Shown: positions 3,125 through 19,601 of the stretch, one piece after another
How positions within the stretch are numbered: the stretch's first letter is position 1
Layout: every line of letters starts with the position of its first letter
NCBI RefSeq assembly: GCF_900111235.1
Contig: NZ_FOJI01000028.1
Span: forward strand, 1 to 21,942
Length of the DNA stretch: 21,942 bases
From: [Clostridium] fimetarium
Lineage (GTDB): Bacteria > Bacillota > Clostridia > Lachnospirales > Lachnospiraceae
Reading direction: 5' to 3'
Notes under the pieces: model-generated
What the model was told of the DNA's origin: nothing
The model's input: only the letters and a program-made list of their open reading frames with translations
Databases searched by the model: none
Position numbers and translations under genes: made by a program

Positions 3125-4258
3125 ATGGAAATAGAAGATAATGTGGAAGCTAGCGTTAAAGACAAGGAAGAAAAACGTATTTTGAAAAGTTTAGCAGAGC
3201 CTCTTTTGGCCTGGTATGATGCGAATGCTAGAATTTTGCCATGGAGAGAAAATGCTGCGCCCTACCGTGTTTGGATGTCAGAAGTGATGTTGCAACAAAC
3301 TAGGGTAGAGGCTGTAAAGTCATATTTTGAAAGATTTATGAAGGCATTGCCAACAATTCAAGCATTGGCAGAAATAGATGATGACGCTCTTCTAAAACTG
3401 TGGGAAGGTCTGGGCTATTATAGTAGGGCTAGAAATGTAAAAAAGACGGCAAAGATAGTAGTTGAGCAATATGGTGGAGAATTTCCATCCAATTATGATG
3501 ATCTAATGGAACTTCCTGGGATCGGTAGTTATACAGCAGGGGCTATTTCTTCTATCGCATTTGCAAATCCAGTGCCGGCAGTAGATGGCAATGTATTAAG
3601 AGTGATTTCCAGAGTTTTGGCTAGTAAAGAAGATATTACAAGTCAATCCGTAAAAAAGAAAGTTGAAGATGAATTACGTGCAACTATGCCACAACTCAAA
3701 CCAGGAGCGTTTAATCAAGCACTAATGGAGATAGGGGCAACGGTATGCGTACCGAATGGAATGGCAAAATGTGAGATTTGTCCCTTGAATCAATTGTGTA
3801 AAGCGAATATACTAGGTATTGTAATGGACTTGCCGAAAAAGACACCAAAGAAACCTAGAACGATTGAGGAGAAAACAATATTAGTAATCAAGTCAGGAGA
3901 TAAGGTCGCAATTAGGAAAAGGTGTAGCAAAGGAATTTTAGCTGGATTATATGAATTTCCAAATATGGAAGGCTATCTATCAGAAAAAGAAGTATTATAT
4001 TTGGTTAAACAAATGTCACTATCCGCAATTAGGATTCTGAAATTAGAGGATTCTAAGCATATCTTTACGCATAAAGAATGGCACATGATTGGATATGTGG
4101 TTAAGGTGGAGGAGTTAGAACAAAACAATAGTATATTAAAAGATTGTTTTTTTGTAGAACCAGCAGAAATAGAAGAAAGATACCCGATTCCTACGGCATT
4201 TCAACGTTATACAAAGTACATCAATATAATACTAGGAAATGATAAGTTTAAGGATTAA
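3125..4258 (+). CDS. mutY: A/G-specific adenine DNA glycosylase MutY (HhH-GPD + 4Fe-4S cluster loop + NUDIX-like C-terminal domain)
   Basis: LLAWYDANARILPWRENAAPYRVWMSEVMLQQTRVEAV..LWEGLGYYSRARN is the classic MutY N-terminus. The Fe-S cysteines are CVPNGMAKCEICPLNQLC. Start ATG 3125 with SD AAAAGGTG; the ORF track's 3065 is upstream and in frame. Confidence 0.9.
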   Translation: MEIEDNVEASVKDKEEKRILKSLAEPLLAWYDANARILPWRENAAPYRVWMSEVMLQQTRVEAVKSYFERFMKALPTIQALAEIDDDALLKLWEGLGYYSRARNVKKTAKIVVEQYGGEFPSNYDDLMELPGIGSYTAGAISSIAFANPVPAVDGNVLRVISRVLASKEDITSQSVKKKVEDELRATMPQLKPGAFNQALMEIGATVCVPNGMAKCEICPLNQLCKANILGIVMDLPKKTPKKPRTIEEKTILVIKSGDKVAIRKRCSKGILAGLYEFPNMEGYLSEKEVLYLVKQMSLSAIRILKLEDSKHIFTHKEWHMIGYVVKVEELEQNNSILKDCFFVEPAEIEERYPIPTAFQRYTKYINIILGNDKFKD

Positions 4259-4410
4259 GATAGTTTAAGGATTAAGATAGTTTAAGGATTAGGATAGTTT
4301 AAGGATTAGGATAGTTTAAGGATTAGGATAGTTTAAGGATTAGGATAGTTTAAGGATTAGGAAAATTTAGAGATTAGGAAATTTTAGGATTAGGAAAATT
4401 AGGATTGGGA
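4241..4410. repeat. tandem repeat array, ~10 copies of a 17-bp unit GATAGTTTAAGGATTA(A/G), degenerating at the 3' end
   Basis: Directly visible. The first unit overlaps the last codons and stop of mutY. The last units decay to GAAAATTTAGAGATTAG / GAAAATTAGGATT. Units are contiguous, so this is not a CRISPR array. Confidence 0.9.
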
Positions 4411-8054: not shown

Positions 8055-8232
8055 AGAAATGAATCAAGAATAATCAAGAATAAGTCAGGGATGAGCAAGA
8101 ATAGCGAAGAATAGAACAAGAATAGCGAAGAATAGAACAAGAATAGCGAAGAATAGAGCAAGAATAGAGCAAGAATACAGAAGGATAGAGTAAGAATAGA
8201 GCAGGAGTAAATGAGGAGTAAATGAGGAGGAA
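8055..8232. repeat. AG-rich intergenic tandem repeat, ~10-11-bp unit AAGAATAG(C/A)G, partly organised as a 21-bp unit
   Basis: caagaatagcgaagaatagaa occurs three times and then degenerates (caagaatagag, taagaatagag). It ends with gagtaaatgag twice, directly before the ABC ATPase SD. Confidence 0.85.
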
Positions 8233-8238
8233 ATAAAG

Positions 8239-14014: not shown

Positions 14015-14081
14015 CCGTTTGTGCCAAAAACATACAGTTTGTGCCAAGTATATATTAATTCCTTCGAAAAACATTTATAAT
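14015..14081 (+). promoter_or_regulatory. LytTR-type direct repeats (2x C(C/A)GTTTGTGCCAA, 20 bp start-to-start) plus a -10 TATAAT about 28 bp downstream; candidate response-regulator-dependent promoter of the C39-like peptidase gene
   Basis: Repeat 1 at 14015-14027 and repeat 2 at 14035-14047 are identical in 12/13 positions. The ACAGTTTGTG core resembles the AgrA/ComE-type 9-bp repeats with ~12-bp spacer. TATAAT lies at 14076-14081. Confidence 0.5.
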
Positions 14082-14184: not shown

Positions 14185-15291
14185 ATGAAAAAAGGGAAGA
14201 TTGGCACAATCGCAGTAGGGGCGGTTGTTGTATGCATTACGGTTTCTTTGCTTTTGCAAAATGAAGTAGAGGGGAACTTATATGATATTAAGGCAAAGAC
14301 TTCTACTACGAAAGTAGAAGTGAGTTATGGTGCAGAGGCAGTGTCATATAATATTATGCGGGATAAGATGCTTTACATGGTATTGGTAAATAAGGATATT
14401 AGGGATACATATGTTAAGAATGTTATTCCACAAGTAGGAATACAAGTAGATACACAAGAATTAAAAGCAATAAGTAAAATTGCTGGTATTTTAGGTAATA
14501 ATGATAAAGAAACAACCTACAAGATAGTTACGACTAAGAGTGATATAGATGGTAAGATGTACCTAGCAGAGACAGCAACTAGTATTAATAAAAGTGTTGT
14601 GTCAGCCAGACGTATTGAACTGCCAGTTTCATATCTAAGTCAATACCCTGAATTGCCAACGGGCTGCGAGATTACATCTTTGACAACTGTTTTGAATTAT
14701 TTAAAATATAAGGTGTCAAAAGAGAATATGGCAGATAAATATTTACCAAAGTGTGATTTAGAGTCACGAGATTTTTTGAATTATTTTTTAGGTGATCCAT
14801 ACACGGATGGTGCATATGGTTGTTATTCAGCGCCTATTATAAAAGCGGCTAATTCTTATCTAAAGCAGCAAGGAAATCAATATACTGCTTACGATTACAG
14901 CGGAAGCGGATTTGGTACATTTTTAAAAGAAATAGAAGCGGGAAACCCTGTAATAATATGGTCAACGATGGATTTAGAATGCGCTTACGTATCAGCTGAG
15001 TGGACAATCAATGGTAGCGATGTGGCGTGGATTTCACCGGAACACTGTGTTGTAATGATTGGATATAATCTGGATGCCAATACAGTAACATTATCAGATC
15101 CAATGCAAGGTATTGTTACAGTTGATATGGATCTAGTGAATCTACGATATACACAAATGTGCAGTCAAGCAGTGGTTATAAAAGCTTATAGTAAAGCTGA
15201 TAACAATGCAACGAAAGCTACGGAGGCAATGACAAAAGCAACGACAAAAGCAACGACGCCAACGCAGGTGCCAACGAAAAAGACGAAGTAA
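14185..15291 (+). CDS. membrane-anchored/secreted C39-like (Peptidase_C39_2, YvpB-like) cysteine peptidase with T/K/A-rich C-terminal tail
   Basis: N-terminal signal-anchor KIGTIAVGAVVVCITVSLLL. Catalytic Cys in YPELPTGCEITSLTTVLNYL and His in WISPEHCVVMIGYN. Start ATG 14185 with SD GGGGGAA; the ORF track's 14170 is a TTG. Confidence 0.8.
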   Translation: MKKGKIGTIAVGAVVVCITVSLLLQNEVEGNLYDIKAKTSTTKVEVSYGAEAVSYNIMRDKMLYMVLVNKDIRDTYVKNVIPQVGIQVDTQELKAISKIAGILGNNDKETTYKIVTTKSDIDGKMYLAETATSINKSVVSARRIELPVSYLSQYPELPTGCEITSLTTVLNYLKYKVSKENMADKYLPKCDLESRDFLNYFLGDPYTDGAYGCYSAPIIKAANSYLKQQGNQYTAYDYSGSGFGTFLKEIEAGNPVIIWSTMDLECAYVSAEWTINGSDVAWISPEHCVVMIGYNLDANTVTLSDPMQGIVTVDMDLVNLRYTQMCSQAVVIKAYSKADNNATKATEAMTKATTKATTPTQVPTKKTK

Positions 15292-15513
15292 GGGACGCGC
15301 TACGGCCCATATAAAGGGGACGCGCCACACCCCATATAAAAGGGGACGCACCACACCCCATATAAAAGGCACGTTCATCGGTTAACGGACGGTAGGCTCA
15401 AATGTTATGCTTTCTAGCTGACACGTAAAAAGATACGTGTCGCTAGCCAGCACAACATTTGAGCCTACCGTTCGTTAAACGATGTACTTAGCCTTTTATA
15501 TGGGGTGTGGCGC
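15292..15513. repeat. GC-rich palindromic repeat element: 3 tandem copies of a ~26-bp unit (GGACGCGCCACACCCCATATAAAAGG), a ~48-bp-arm imperfect hairpin, and an inverted copy of the unit at the far end (MITE-like or structured RNA)
   Basis: The element starts immediately after the peptidase stop. Tandem copies lie at 15292-15369. Inner hairpin arms at 15391-15426 and 15435-15469 extend with mismatches to 15379-15481. ccttttatatggggtgtggcgc at 15492-15513 is the exact reverse complement of gcgccacaccccatataaaagg at 15322-15343. GC content is far above the surrounding ~30%. Confidence 0.6.
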
Positions 15514-15705
15514 TGGTTGTTTAGAAGGGCGGTAAAGTGCGGAATAAGCGTAGCGACGGGAGGGCGTTAGAGGCGATATAGGGTTCGATGGAAGGGGGCG
15601 TTAGCATCGAATTAGCGTAATGTCGTTGGAATATTAATACGGAGTCCCCCTTGGTTGTTAGGTGAGAGGTGGAGGCTTGGTAGAGGGTGCTTGGCTTTTT
15701 TTATT
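15514..15705. other. GC-rich non-coding segment with dispersed direct repeats (GGGCGTTAG x2, AGCGTA..CG..GG x2, GGTTGTTTAG/GGTTGTTAGG x2), ending in GCTTGGCTTTTTTT
   Basis: Read directly from the sequence. There is no ORF with a plausible start or SD. The purine-rich, GC-rich composition is atypical for this genome. Confidence 0.4.
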
Positions 15706-16011
15706 CATATTTATTAAAGATGCGAATATAAATAATATTGACCTATAAATAGTGGTGATTTGAGTTTCGTGTCTACGTTAGCATATGGAGGGTGAAAAAT
15801 GAGCTTAAGGGAAGATTTTCATCATCTTTGAGGCTTGAAAAGACATGCTACTGCAAGGAAAGATAAGGCATATGTGTAATTGCAAATTATTATTCAATAG
15901 ATACCTTAATTTATTGTAGGATTTAGTTGAATTATAGGAGAAGATGGAGTAAAATTAATTTAATTCAAGACTTGGATAGTAGAATACTATCAAGTGAGAA
16001 AGGGGAACATA

Positions 16012-18252
16012 ATGGATTTAACTATGATTTTGATTTTAGCAGTAGTAGGTATTTTCGTAGTATACTTAGTCATCTTTCAGATTTTAGGTTTAAGGGTAAT
16101 CAATTCTAACGAAGTGGCTGTTGTAGAGAAGTGGTGGAGTGTTAGAGGTTCACTTAAAAATTCAATCATCGCCCTTGGTGGTGAGGCAGGTTATGAGCCT
16201 GAACTATTACGTGGAGGTATTCATTTTCGCTCAGTACTTATGTACAAGATATACAAATATCCATTGATTACAGTACCACAGGGTCAGATCGCTTACATTT
16301 TCTCAAGAGATGGAAATCCTCTTTCACCAACACAGACACTTGGTAAGGTCGTTCCAGAAGCGAATAATTTCCAAGACGTAAAAGGATTCTTACAAAATGG
16401 TGGACAAAAAGGACCACAAAGGGGAATTATAAGAGAAGGAACTTATGCAATTAACTTAGCACAATTTATTGTGATTACCATAAGTGACATTAAGGCTATC
16501 AATATTTCAAGACAAGATAGAAATGAACTTTTGACAATGCAGCAGACACTTGAGCAAAGAAACGGATTTACACCAGTTATCATTATGGGAAATCAAGTCG
16601 AAGACACTGATCAGATGTGTATTGTTACAGTCCATGACGGACTTCCACTTGAACAGGGCGAGATCATTGCGAATGATGTAGGACCTGAACATTCTAATTT
16701 TCAGGATCCTGAAAAGTTCCTAGAACTTGGCGGAAGACGTGGTAAGCAGATACGAGTACTTACTGATGGTACATATTTCATTAATAGACTTTTTGCAACA
16801 GTTGAATATAGACCAAAAACGGTAGTTCCTATTGGTTTTGTTGGAGTTGTAGTATCATTTTTTGGTAAAGAAGGCGTTGATACAACTGGAATCGATTATA
16901 AGCATGGCGAACTTGTTGCCAATGGCTGCAAGGGTGTTTTAGAGAAACCGCTTATGTCAGGAAAATATGCATTTAATACAGATGCAGGTAAAGTAGTTCT
17001 TGTTCCAACCACTAATATTATTTTAAAATGGAATAAGAGTGAAACAGGCGATCATAAATATGATGAAAATCTTACTGAAGTAGATATCATAACAAAAGAT
17101 GCATTTGAACCATCATTACCGCTATCAGTTGTTATGCATATCGATTACAAACAAGCACCATGGGTTATTCAAAGATTTGGCGATATTAATATGTTAGTTA
17201 ACCAGTCACTTGATCCACTTGTAAGTGCTTATTTCAAGGATGTTGCGCAGACAAAGACATTGATAGAATTGATTCAAGAGCGTAGTGAGATTCGTGAAAG
17301 AGCAGTCGAGGAAATGCACGAGAAGTTCCAAAAATATAATCTTCAATTAGAAGAAGTCCTTATCGGAACACCAAAGACGAATGCTGGGGATATTATGATT
17401 GAGAACATCCTTACACAGCTTCGTGAAAGACAAATTGCTGAAGAAAAGAAGATAACTTATCAGAAACAACAGCAAGCGGCAGAGAGTGAGAAATCACTTC
17501 GTGAAGCTGAGGCTACTGCATCACAGCAAGGATTACTTACAAAATCAAAGATTCAGATTGAAATTGAAGGAAACAGCGGTGCAGCACTTGCAAGTAAAGC
17601 TGAACAGGAAGCGAATCAAATTGTTGCACTTGCCAAAGCAAATTCAACTAAGATACGATTAGAAGGTGAAGCAGAGGCTTCTAAAGAGTCAAATGTCGGT
17701 CTTGCAAAAGCACAGGCAATTGATGCTCAAGTAAAGGCATATGGTGGAGCAGAATATCGTATTATTCAGGAAATTGCTGATAAACTTTCAGATGCAATTA
17801 AGAATGCTCATGTTGATATTGTACCTAAAACAGTCGTTAACATGGGAGGAAGTGGTGAAAATGGAGAGAACGGAAGCGGTACAATCATTGATGCATTGCT
17901 AAAGTTTATTACCTTAGACAAATTAGGTGTTCCTTTGAAAAGCCCAAATGTAGGAAAGTATGAAGCACCAACTGTAGCACCTTATGATACAAATCAAGAA
18001 GTAGCAGATGGCACCTCAGCGGAGGAAGTAGTAGATTCATCAAATGAATCCGTTGACAAAGCTTTAAAAGAATCAAAAGAAACGACTTCAACAAATGAAA
18101 AAACCGATGAAACAACAGCTTCTGCTACAAAAGAAGAAAAGGAATCGGCAGCAGATAAATCAGCTGCAAAGAAAACAATCGCTGCGAAAAAAGAATCAGA
18201 AGAACAGCCAGAAAAGATAAAACTAAGCAAGTATAGCTTTAAGACATTTTAA
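16012..18252 (+). CDS. flotillin-like SPFH/band-7 domain protein (FloT/YuaG-like) with N-terminal TM anchor, coiled-coil flotillin region and long acidic S/T/K/E-rich disordered C-terminal tail
   Basis: TM segment LTMILILAVVGIFVVYLVIFQILGL. The SPFH core is followed by E/A/K/Q-rich heptad-like repeats (AEEKKITYQKQQQAAESEKSLREAEATA...). Start ATG 16012 with SD AAAGGGGAA; the ORF track's 15994 is a GTG. Confidence 0.85.
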   Translation: MDLTMILILAVVGIFVVYLVIFQILGLRVINSNEVAVVEKWWSVRGSLKNSIIALGGEAGYEPELLRGGIHFRSVLMYKIYKYPLITVPQGQIAYIFSRDGNPLSPTQTLGKVVPEANNFQDVKGFLQNGGQKGPQRGIIREGTYAINLAQFIVITISDIKAINISRQDRNELLTMQQTLEQRNGFTPVIIMGNQVEDTDQMCIVTVHDGLPLEQGEIIANDVGPEHSNFQDPEKFLELGGRRGKQIRVLTDGTYFINRLFATVEYRPKTVVPIGFVGVVVSFFGKEGVDTTGIDYKHGELVANGCKGVLEKPLMSGKYAFNTDAGKVVLVPTTNIILKWNKSETGDHKYDENLTEVDIITKDAFEPSLPLSVVMHIDYKQAPWVIQRFGDINMLVNQSLDPLVSAYFKDVAQTKTLIELIQERSEIRERAVEEMHEKFQKYNLQLEEVLIGTPKTNAGDIMIENILTQLRERQIAEEKKITYQKQQQAAESEKSLREAEATASQQGLLTKSKIQIEIEGNSGAALASKAEQEANQIVALAKANSTKIRLEGEAEASKESNVGLAKAQAIDAQVKAYGGAEYRIIQEIADKLSDAIKNAHVDIVPKTVVNMGGSGENGENGSGTIIDALLKFITLDKLGVPLKSPNVGKYEAPTVAPYDTNQEVADGTSAEEVVDSSNESVDKALKESKETTSTNEKTDETTASATKEEKESAADKSAAKKTIAAKKESEEQPEKIKLSKYSFKTF

Positions 18253-18362: not shown

Positions 18363-19601
18363 GTGAAAATAAGATTAATTACATTTATTCAAAAAGAAAT
18401 TGTTCTGTGTATTGCGGTTCTATGTGCGATTATATCCGCGTTTCTAATTCCACCATCGAAAGCGTATATAGATTACATAGACTTTAGAGTACTAGCACTA
18501 CTATTTTGCCTAATGCTCGTAGTTGCAGGATTTCAAACGATAGGTTTGTTTGAAAATATAATTGAGAAAATGATAAAACATATCAGCAATACAAGGCAAC
18601 TTGCATTTGCACTGGTACTGATTTGCTTTTTTACAAGTATGTTTATTACAAATGATGTTGCATTAATCACATTTGTACCATTTGCAATCATGACTTTGCA
18701 GAAGATCAAAAAAGAAAAGTTGATGATATTTGTTATCGTCATGCAGACAATTGCAGCTAATCTGGGTAGCATGTTTACACCACTTGGAAACCCGCAGAAT
18801 CTGTATTTATATTCAATTTCTCAAATGGATATTTTAGGATTTCTAAGGCTTATGTTTCCAGTCACATGTTTATCTTTCGTATTAATTGCAGTGACATTGC
18901 TATTTATGAAAAATGAAAAAATAGGGACATTAGAGAAAATAGGGACATTAGAGGAAATAGGGACATTAGAGGAAATAGGGAAATTAGAGGAAATAGGCAC
19001 ATTAGAAGAAATAGGAATAATAGAGGAAATAGGTGCAGTAGAGGAAAAAGGGACAATAGACGTCAGTAGATCGGTCAACCTTGACCGGGTGCAAATGACG
19101 GCTTTTATAGTATTGTTTGCAATTTGTCTATGTACAGTACTCCATATGATTGATTATAGAATTGCAATCGTTATTGTAGTGATTACAGTACTTATATTTA
19201 ATCGAAAATTACTTGCGAAAGCAGACTATTTACTCTTGCTGACATTTGTGGCATTCTTTATATTTGTGGGAAATATGAAGCATATGACATGTATTGCAAA
19301 TGTACTTGCTAGCGTTGTAAGTGGTAATGAAATTATAGTTTCAACAATAGCAAGCCAAGTAATTAGTAACGTTCCTGCGGCAATACTACTTTCGGGATTC
19401 ACAAAAAATTATTCTATGTTAATACTTGGAACAAATATTGGTGGACTCGGAACGTTGATAGCCTCGATGGCAAGTTTGATTTCATATAAAATTTATGGAA
19501 AAACAGAAGGTGCTCGAAAGGGTAAATATTTGGCAGTGTTTTCTGTGTTCAATCTGATATATCTTTTTATTATTTTGACGGCTTGCATTATAATTGTTTA
19601 A
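18363..19601 (+). CDS. ArsB/NhaD-superfamily (CitMHS/YbiR-like) anion/ion permease with a central (EIGTLE)n repeat loop
   Basis: Polytopic protein. It carries TNDVALITFVPFA and the TPLGNPQNLYLYS motif characteristic of the ArsB/NhaD permease superfamily. The start is uncertain: GTG 18363 has a weak SD. Confidence 0.7.
   Translation: MKIRLITFIQKEIVLCIAVLCAIISAFLIPPSKAYIDYIDFRVLALLFCLMLVVAGFQTIGLFENIIEKMIKHISNTRQLAFALVLICFFTSMFITNDVALITFVPFAIMTLQKIKKEKLMIFVIVMQTIAANLGSMFTPLGNPQNLYLYSISQMDILGFLRLMFPVTCLSFVLIAVTLLFMKNEKIGTLEKIGTLEEIGTLEEIGKLEEIGTLEEIGIIEEIGAVEEKGTIDVSRSVNLDRVQMTAFIVLFAICLCTVLHMIDYRIAIVIVVITVLIFNRKLLAKADYLLLLTFVAFFIFVGNMKHMTCIANVLASVVSGNEIIVSTIASQVISNVPAAILLSGFTKNYSMLILGTNIGGLGTLIASMASLISYKIYGKTEGARKGKYLAVFSVFNLIYLFIILTACIIIV
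18915..19060 (+). repeat. in-frame 18-bp tandem repeat (~8 units, GAAATAGGGACATTAGAG) inside the permease gene, encoding (E/K)(E/K)IGTL repeats
   Basis: Directly visible. The units diverge at the 3' end (ataggcacattagaagaa, ataggaataatagaggaa, ataggtgcagtagaggaa). Confidence 0.9.

Follow-up and report, generated by a model that had tools for sequence, protein, structure and literature searches.

The peptidase-flotillin locus

The stretch of DNA analysed here, 21,942 nucleotides that we call the window, carries 17 genes, and all 17 of them lie on the + strand. In order, these are an AraC-type regulator, a chemoreceptor, a MutY-like glycosylase, an oxidoreductase, an S8 subtilase and a TetR gene, then an ABC transporter (three genes), a radical-SAM/SPASM enzyme, a LytTR response regulator and a GHKL histidine kinase, and finally a Peptidase_C39_2 gene, the element that is our subject, a Band_7 flotillin, a CitMHS transporter, a GNAT gene and an ammonium transporter. 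Among the genes of these 22 kb there is no transposase, RAYT, integrase, recombinase, replication or relaxase gene, and a tRNA/tmRNA search of the window returned none.

The features in and around the element are collected in Table 1. The called start of the peptidase ORF is the ATG at 14185, not a TTG, its stop codon is the TAA at 15289-15291, and the exact protein is present on Logan contig SRR4233938_70. The flotillin is 82-87% identical to Anaerocolumna and Anaerosacchariphilus flotillins. An earlier reading of this DNA (the sequence-only reading) had placed the element directly behind the peptidase stop codon and upstream of the flotillin gene, and that is where it lies, beginning at 15292. 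The window is identical to a Logan contig from SRR4233938, and the structure of the element was assembled independently in Logan SRR4233938, ENA ERZ27250295, JGI 3300028864 and JGI 3300031722. As independent assemblies arrive at the same structure, the element is not an assembly artefact.

Table 1. Features of the locus, in window positions, with the partner positions that change together between two strains.
Feature	Position	Strand	Remarks
Peptidase gene	14185..15291	+	secreted Peptidase_C39_2 (YvpB-like); Pfam E = 5e-29
Three tandem ~26-bp units of GGACGCGCCACACCCCATATAAAAGG	15292..15369	+	TRF: period 26, 3.0 copies, 90% matches
Imperfect palindrome, ~70 base pairs	15348..15513		left arm 15348-15427, loop 15428-15433, right arm 15434-15513
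Right-hand hairpin base	15492..15513		100% complementary to 15322-15343 (unit 2 core, 22 nt)
Partner positions	15350/15511		A.C to G.T, partner-position change (window vs L009)
Partner positions	15365/15496		A-T to T-A, full compensatory change (window vs L009)
Partner positions	15393/15467		T-A to C-G, full compensatory change (window vs L009)
Degenerate U-tract TGGTTGTTT	15514..15522	+	directly 3' of hairpin; 6/9 T, G-interrupted
G-rich tract, ~32/67-bp units GGGCGTTAG..CGA..TAGGGTTCG	15514..15690	+	GC ~0.5
Conserved non-element block TGCTTGGCT-T7-ATTCATATTT ... GAATATAAATAATATTGAC	15688..15742	+	right limit of variable region
Promoter-like TTGAAT-17-TAAAAT	15927..15955	+	upstream of flotillin gene; context, outside element
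Band_7/SPFH flotillin-family gene	16012..18252	+	Pfam; 3' of element

Upstream of the peptidase gene, just 3' of the LytTR regulator and histidine kinase genes, two copies of GTTTGTGCCAA at 14017-14047 (starts 14017 and 14037, 20 bp apart) make a candidate LytTR operator. In two of the related loci described below, L004 and L013, the LytTR/kinase pair is absent and the peptidase is retained. On the other side of the element, L004 and L013 have conserved the promoter-like sequence in front of the flotillin gene, and L005 nearly has; in the block 15927-16011 it is followed by a leader that holds the inverted repeat GATAGTAGAATACTATC. The two non-coding blocks at 15688-15742 and 15927-16011 are conserved across lineages and probably serve the flotillin gene as promoter, operator and leader.

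The window holds other repeats as well. Between the MutY-like and GFO/IDH oxidoreductase genes (4245-4395), there are 8.9 copies of the 17-bp unit AGTTTAAGGATTAGGAT, with 93% identity. The spacer that separates the TetR gene from the ABC-transporter operon holds a nested, purine-rich tandem array at 8065-8234, whose periods are 11, 21 and 42 bp (CAAGAATAGAG, ~13 copies); the corresponding spacer in L005 is only ~90 nt long. Inside the CitMHS gene (18363-19601), an in-frame 18-bp unit is repeated 7.9 times at 18919-19060. This repeat is absent from the L004 orthologue, which has 347 aa against 412 aa (alignment gap 18928-19092), and since the CitMHS proteins of L009 and L011 have 424 aa, the coding repeat varies in copy number.

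The low-complexity C-terminal tail of the peptidase also contains a coding repeat, of 12 bp (ATTK-like, 15226-15257), with 2.7 copies versus 3.7 in L003/L009. In L003 a premature TAA (L003 1900-1905) removes the whole tail and leaves 330 aa, so the tail seems dispensable.

Tandem units, a giant hairpin and a G-rich tract

What lies between the peptidase stop codon and the conserved block at 15688? The sequence-only reading listed three tandem copies of a 26-mer, a long imperfect hairpin with arms of ~35-48 bp and an 8-nt loop at 15427-15434, and an exact 22-bp inverted copy of the repeat at 15492-15513. The array is recovered by TRF, and on inspection consists of two good copies and one old one: unit 2 (15318-15343) matches the 26-mer exactly, unit 3 (15344-15369) has 1 mismatch to it, and unit 1 (15293-15317) is diverged, 25 nt long and ~77% identical. 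No further copy with up to 3 mismatches was found in the 21.9-kb window, where 0 are expected by chance (100 shuffles). The unit is present 3 times in the window versus 2 in L003, L009 and L011.

The hairpin is real and larger than had been claimed. It starts ~55-57 nt 3' of the TAA on the sense strand and, in the minimum free energy (MFE) fold, comprises ~70 pairs with a few bulges of 1-3 nt; its arms are 82% complementary over 55 nt and are topped by an 8-bp stem. The loop is 6 nt, the closing pair having been counted into the 8 nt given before. The 22-bp inverted copy is there, exactly as described, and it is not a separate part: it pairs with unit 3, with one A.C mismatch (15350/15511), so that unit 3 and the inverted copy are the basal helix of one hairpin.

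The hairpin has an MFE of -117 kcal/mol as + strand RNA, -125 as - strand RNA and -73 as DNA. Folding of both strands, which had been proposed as a check, gives z = -10.8 (+) and -13.7 (-) for the 436-nt region, and z = -16.7 for the hairpin as DNA, with 0 shuffles folding as well in either case. Stability is thus alike on both strands, and the G.U pairs have no strand bias.

The third component lies 3' of the hairpin. GC content over 15200-15700 is 47-55%, versus 34% in the window and 19-38% in every other intergenic spacer of the window, spacers that carry ordinary terminators. The earlier value of near 50% in low-GC surroundings stands; the GC-rich block does not stop at 15513, as had been thought, and reaches ~15690. 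This additional part is the G-rich tract, which has a GC skew of +0.3 to +0.5 (maximum +0.54) and direct repeats inside it (15562-15584 / 15596-15618), and which alone folds no better than shuffles (z = -0.09). Its 67-bp unit is present about once in the window versus 3.1 times in L009/L011, while in L003 there are 2.3 copies of a 32-bp sub-unit, and the length of the tract differs ~2-fold between strains. Both repeats are VNTRs: the head-to-tail 26-bp and 67-bp units differ in number between close strains.

One contig from JGI (L012) has its position 1 inside the G-rich repeat tract. From this it appears that the tract breaks short-read assemblies, and published copy numbers may be underestimates. 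Within the element no ORF is conserved between the window and L009, and a 78-aa minus-strand ORF at 15142-15378, which we had considered as a coding region, was dropped because it is not conserved between the two.

Orthologous loci

Orthologous loci were collected via homologues of the peptidase and the flotillin. At the orthologous position they form a graded series, in which L005/L006 lack a hairpin, L013 has a canonical terminator, L004 has a 17-bp stem, and the last member is the giant form. The giant form is carried by the window, L003, L009 (the same as L010), L011 and, in part, L012, with DNA that is 94-96% identical to the window. Lineages that have the element and lineages that lack it agree in their flanking synteny.

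At the low end of the series, L005 and L006 have a spacer of ~45 nt without a hairpin behind a peptidase that is 50% identical. In these two loci (L005 5001-7059, L006 3405-5456), two tandem C39-like peptidase paralogues, ~50% identical to each other, lie between the kinase and flotillin genes. L014 and L022 are arranged in yet other ways.

L013, whose peptidase and flotillin are 61% and 97% identical to those of the window, has a textbook terminator, GAGCCACGCC-TAATTGAAAG-GGCGTGG-T8. It is called by a terminator scanner, as GAGCCACGCCTAATTGAAAGGGCGTGGTTT + TTTTTGACAC directly 3' of the peptidase gene, and is followed by the conserved block GCTTGGTTATTTTTTATTCATATTT. The outer stem of the giant hairpin (GCGCCACACCCC / GGGGTGTGGCGC) resembles the stem of this terminator (GAGCCACGCC / GGCGTGG), and the L013 loop resembles ATATAAAAGG.

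L004, L007 and seven more contigs have, in the same place, a mini form composed of GCGCGTCTCATATAAAAG, 26 nt, CTTTTATATGAGGCGCG and ATTTTATT, which is invariant in 8/8 contigs. This mini form has a 17-bp stem and a folding energy of -34.6 kcal/mol (+ strand) or -21.0 (- strand), and its 26-nt loop contains GTTCATCGGTTAA, which is also the start of the inner left arm in the window. Peptidase and flotillin of this group are 61% and 96% identical to those of the window.

How do these forms correspond? The block at 15688-15742 is common to the window, L004 and L013, its GAATATAAAT part being found in L005/L006 as well, and the right-boundary alignment reads GCTTGG[C/T]T(A)TTTTTTATTCATATTT...GAATATAAATAAT (window 15688-15738) in the giant, L004 and L013 forms. 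Because the three forms share this right block, the element lies in the peptidase gene's terminator slot, with a base that is homologous to the ordinary terminators of sister lineages. In the terminator hairpins of L013 and L004, the homologue of the right-hand hairpin base (15492-15513) is the 3' stem. The alignment puts 15514-15522 at the position of ATTTTATT in L004 and of T8 in L013, which suggests that the degenerate U-tract is homologous to both. Other parts have no such counterpart: nothing in L004 or L013 matches the G-rich tract or the interior ~45 nt of either arm, and in place of the G-rich tract these two loci have ~10 nt.

By protein identities, the window, L004 and L013 lineages are roughly equidistant, a three-way split. 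Such equal distances fit a small terminator that has grown as well as a large element that has decayed.

Covariation between the arms

Of the 166 hairpin positions, 8 (4.8%) are not the same in the window and in L009, which equals the divergence of the surrounding genes (~5%). Six of the eight substitutions fall on three pairs of partner positions (Table 1), and the remaining two yield U.G or A.C. When eight substitutions were placed at random in 200,000 simulations, the probability of at least two Watson-Crick-restoring double changes was 6e-4, for a comparison that has two haplotypes only (window and L009), the element being missing or reduced in the sister lineages. Given such a low chance of double changes, the pairing of the hairpin appears to be maintained.

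Does maintained pairing imply a selected RNA structure? Hairpin stems can arise and be maintained by template switching, for which there is a published account and which alters both sides at once (PMC8794818). With a known mechanism of this kind, and with both strands equally stable, the maintenance of pairing alone is not proof of selection on RNA.

Searches for further copies and for RNA families

The sequence-only reading offered three possibilities for the element: a MITE/REP-like mobile repeat, a very stable bidirectional terminator, or a structured small RNA. The copy search that it proposed was run on the window, its relatives and sequence collections, and in these there was no second copy. 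In 155 kb of related loci, a sensitive blastn-short search found the element at the orthologous position only, and blastn in distant mode against phage and plasmid collections gave no match. A scan of the GTDB species representatives for exact matches to the 19-mer CCACACCCCATATAAAAGG returned one chance match only, in a Haladaptatus (haloarchaeal) MAG. Four scans of viral contigs with different parts of the element gave no match, and a JGI metagenome scan with ATAWAAGGNNNGTTCATCGGTTAA, a pattern that two lineages share, yielded a pair of orthologous loci, one chance match and no dispersed copy. Among the sequences searched, the element is found only at one locus in one Lachnospiraceae lineage; as a test for copies this is a weak one, because the collection scans demand an exact match at 19-24 specified bases and the complete genome of the host lies outside the searched set. 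There is no target-site duplication at the element either, the flanks GAAGTAA|GGGACG and GGCGC|TGGTTG having no direct repeat.

These results bear on a possible mobile origin. The element could be the relic of a mobile palindrome (MITE, REP or foldback-like) that entered the peptidase terminator, or a site beside it, in an ancestor common to the window, L004 and L013 lineages; internal deletion would then have eroded the L004 and L013 copies, and slippage would have expanded the one in the window lineage. Long palindromes are prone to deletion, and L004 retains only the left part of the interior, like a deletion derivative. A GC content of ~50% against 19-38% in all other spacers, and an interior and a G-rich tract without counterpart in relatives, point the same way; these features would also fit imported DNA. 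Moreover, most of the G-rich tract lies between two imperfect direct repeats, TGGTTGTTTAG (15513-15523) and TGGTTGTTAG (15652-15661). The perfect 22-bp terminal inverted repeat (15322-15343 / 15492-15513) is suggestive too, but at the same time it is just the basal part of a continuous hairpin. Against a mobile origin stand the lack of a second copy in the window, in the 155 kb of related loci and in the GTDB, JGI, viral, phage and plasmid collections, the lack of a target-site duplication around 15292-15513, and the lack of a transposase or RAYT gene in the window. Relatives show smaller homologous hairpins in place of a clean empty site, and an ordinary terminator, that of L013, has a stem homologous to the outer stem. 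Finally, the interior-flanking duplication ATATAAAAGG / CCTTTTATAT is inverted, not direct, which transposition does not produce. We consider a relic of this kind unlikely. The proposal of a MITE/REP-like repeat finds no support, since no second copy or target-site duplication was found and the orthologous sites are graded rather than filled or empty.

An Rfam search at gathering thresholds gave 0 matches in the whole window, L004, L009 and L013. With E-values up to 10, region 15100-16100 has only chance-level matches to eukaryotic microRNAs and snoRNAs. The Rfam scan that had been suggested therefore identifies no family, and with strands that show no asymmetry and a G-rich tail at z = -0.09, the small-RNA proposal is unsupported as well.

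A broader version would make the ~400-nt 3' UTR of the LytTR-driven peptidase mRNA a regulatory RNA acting in trans or after processing, by analogy with RNAIII (agr) or VR-RNA (VirR/VirS), or would postulate a C-rich minus-strand RNA ending at terminator-like GGGGTGTGGCGCGTCCC-CTTTATAT units. GC-rich spacers in AT-rich genomes often encode structured RNAs, the pairing of the hairpin is kept between strains, and the peptidase gene directly follows the genes for a LytTR response regulator and a GHKL kinase, with the direct repeats of GTTTGTGCCAA occurring twice upstream (14017-14047). On the minus strand there are weak terminator-like sites at 15359-15343 and 15333-15317, but no promoter-like site that faces the element. 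The G.U pairs, however, have no strand bias, Rfam has no matching family, the G-rich tract varies ~2-fold in length with a fold at shuffle level, and the element is missing or tiny in relatives that retain the same genes. A regulatory RNA is, in our judgement, very unlikely.

Alternatively, the function could reside in the DNA, the 26-bp units being iteron-like sites for protein binding and the palindrome a cruciform or recombination site (oriT, sso, attC or dif-like). Three direct repeats do adjoin a long palindrome, both strands give an equally good structure, also with DNA parameters, and GTTAAC / GTTAAAC in the arms loosely resembles the core sites of integron attC. But the 22 kb include no replication, relaxase, integrase or recombinase gene, the flanking synteny is the same in lineages with and without the element, the number of 'iterons' differs between near-identical strains, and there is a single site, not an array. 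We regard a DNA-level site as highly improbable.

Three more specific identities were considered and rejected. An integron attC site, suggested by GTTAAAC in the arm, has against it the absence of an integrase and of an array, the conserved flanking synteny and an imperfect inverse core. A group II intron remnant after the terminator, suggested by GTGCG at 15536-15540, would occupy only ~175 nt of variable tandem repeat without a fold, and there is no Rfam intron signal. And a retron msd-like hairpin would be expected to come with a reverse transcriptase gene, of which there is none.

A probable overgrown terminator

We lean towards an explanation in which the element is a locus-bound, overgrown intrinsic terminator or 3'-end hairpin of the peptidase gene, accompanied by tandem tracts that vary between strains. 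Positions 15348-15513 form a GC-rich, sense-strand stem-loop 3' of a stop codon, as intrinsic terminators do, and what favours this explanation is that the base of the hairpin, and probably the T-rich tail behind it, is homologous in position and sequence to the L013 and L004 hairpins. In E. coli, most of the inverted repeats that directly follow a stop codon are intrinsic terminators (PMC6060812).

Of the three original possibilities, a very stable terminator is thus the best supported, although the word 'bidirectional' has no basis, as all genes in the window are on the + strand. The sequence-only reading also said that an element with a single copy in the genome, no structure supported by covariation and no discrete transcript would likely be just a composite terminator, and our results come essentially to a single-copy composite terminator, with the added finding that the arms co-vary.

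How would such an element work? The peptidase gene is probably driven by the adjacent LytTR/histidine-kinase pair, and on transcription its RNA would fold into the giant hairpin. From its position and homology, the hairpin would stop or pause RNA polymerase at the degenerate U-tract (15514-15522), block 3'-to-5' exonucleases, and so may insulate the promoter region of the downstream flotillin gene from a peptidase gene that is probably induced by quorum sensing. A duplex of such length should also be a substrate of RNase III. In the window, the U-tract has decayed to UGGUUGUUU, which makes the efficiency of termination uncertain; with so poor a tract, the giant hairpin may no longer be an efficient terminator.

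How could it have become so large? We propose that replication slippage generates the tandem units, and that intra-strand template switching (quasi-palindrome correction) copies one arm onto the other. Template switching would both lengthen the stem and yield apparent compensatory changes, so strong selection for an extra function is unnecessary to account for the size. Slippage and template switching together best explain, we infer, the extreme size, the triplicated arm and the G-rich tract. Judging by the three other tandem arrays in the window, this genome is prone to tandem arrays.

Two further-reaching ideas are, taken together, distinctly unlikely. One is that the graded series captures the birth of a proto-MITE/REP from an ordinary terminator, going from no hairpin (L005/L006) to a 7-11-bp terminator (L013), a 17-bp stem (L004) and, in the window lineage, a 70-bp stem with a triplicated arm and a G-rich repeat tract, where the stem would grow by successive template-switch inverted duplications and slippage before any dispersal. 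The other is that the enlarged 3' UTR has come to regulate the quorum-sensing-induced peptidase transcript.

If the element is indeed an overgrown terminator, it is a natural example of fast change in a terminator hairpin, from a stem of 7-11 bp to a palindrome of 70 bp, across lineages with ~94-97% flotillin identity (first 620 residues), and with arms that co-evolve at a roughly neutral rate. It would then follow that compensatory changes in a long DNA palindrome are not alone proof of a selected RNA structure, and that GC-rich spacers in AT-rich genomes, which are used in searches for ncRNAs, can be overgrown terminators with variable tandem repeats. The element does not reveal a new kind of system or open a long-standing question to testing.

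Comparison with known systems

The closest known systems are intrinsic terminators and 3' stabilising hairpins ('retroregulators', such as the cry terminator of Bacillus thuringiensis). The element shares with them a GC-rich sense stem-loop after the stop codon and a T-rich tail, and it sits at the position of the canonical L013 terminator with a similar outer stem. It differs in having ~70 bp where the usual stem has 5-15 bp, and in its triplicated left arm, its degenerate U-tract UGGUUGUUU and the ~175-nt G-rich repeat tract that follows.

A second group consists of the enterobacterial REP/BIME sequences and of MITEs that double as terminators (Correia in Neisseria; RUP and BOX in Streptococcus pneumoniae; ERIC). 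These too are imperfect palindromes in intergenic regions after genes, with perfect terminal inverted repeats, a GC content above the surroundings and a likely effect on mRNA 3' ends. But a REP or MITE family has, by definition, many dispersed copies per genome, and target-site duplications are a further part of the definition of MITEs, whereas the element has one known locus, no duplication and graded orthologues.

The STAR elements of Staphylococcus aureus are GC-rich, short intergenic units of a low-GC Firmicute that vary in copy number between strains, and in these respects they resemble the element. In contrast to it, STAR units are scattered over numerous loci, and their arrangement is interspersed, not strictly tandem; the element has no sequence similarity to them and no evidence of dispersal.

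Finally, quasi-palindrome or template-switch products (PMC8794818) have in common with the element a nearly perfect palindrome, paired positions that change together, including transversion with transversion, and an inverted duplication that flanks the interior. That literature describes a mutational mechanism, mostly in short stems of RNA genes, and the 166-nt palindrome would be an extreme example, if the mechanism that we infer is right. The element fits no described family; its kind, a palindrome at a terminator position with variable tandem repeats, is known, and the present variant is unusually large and fast-evolving.
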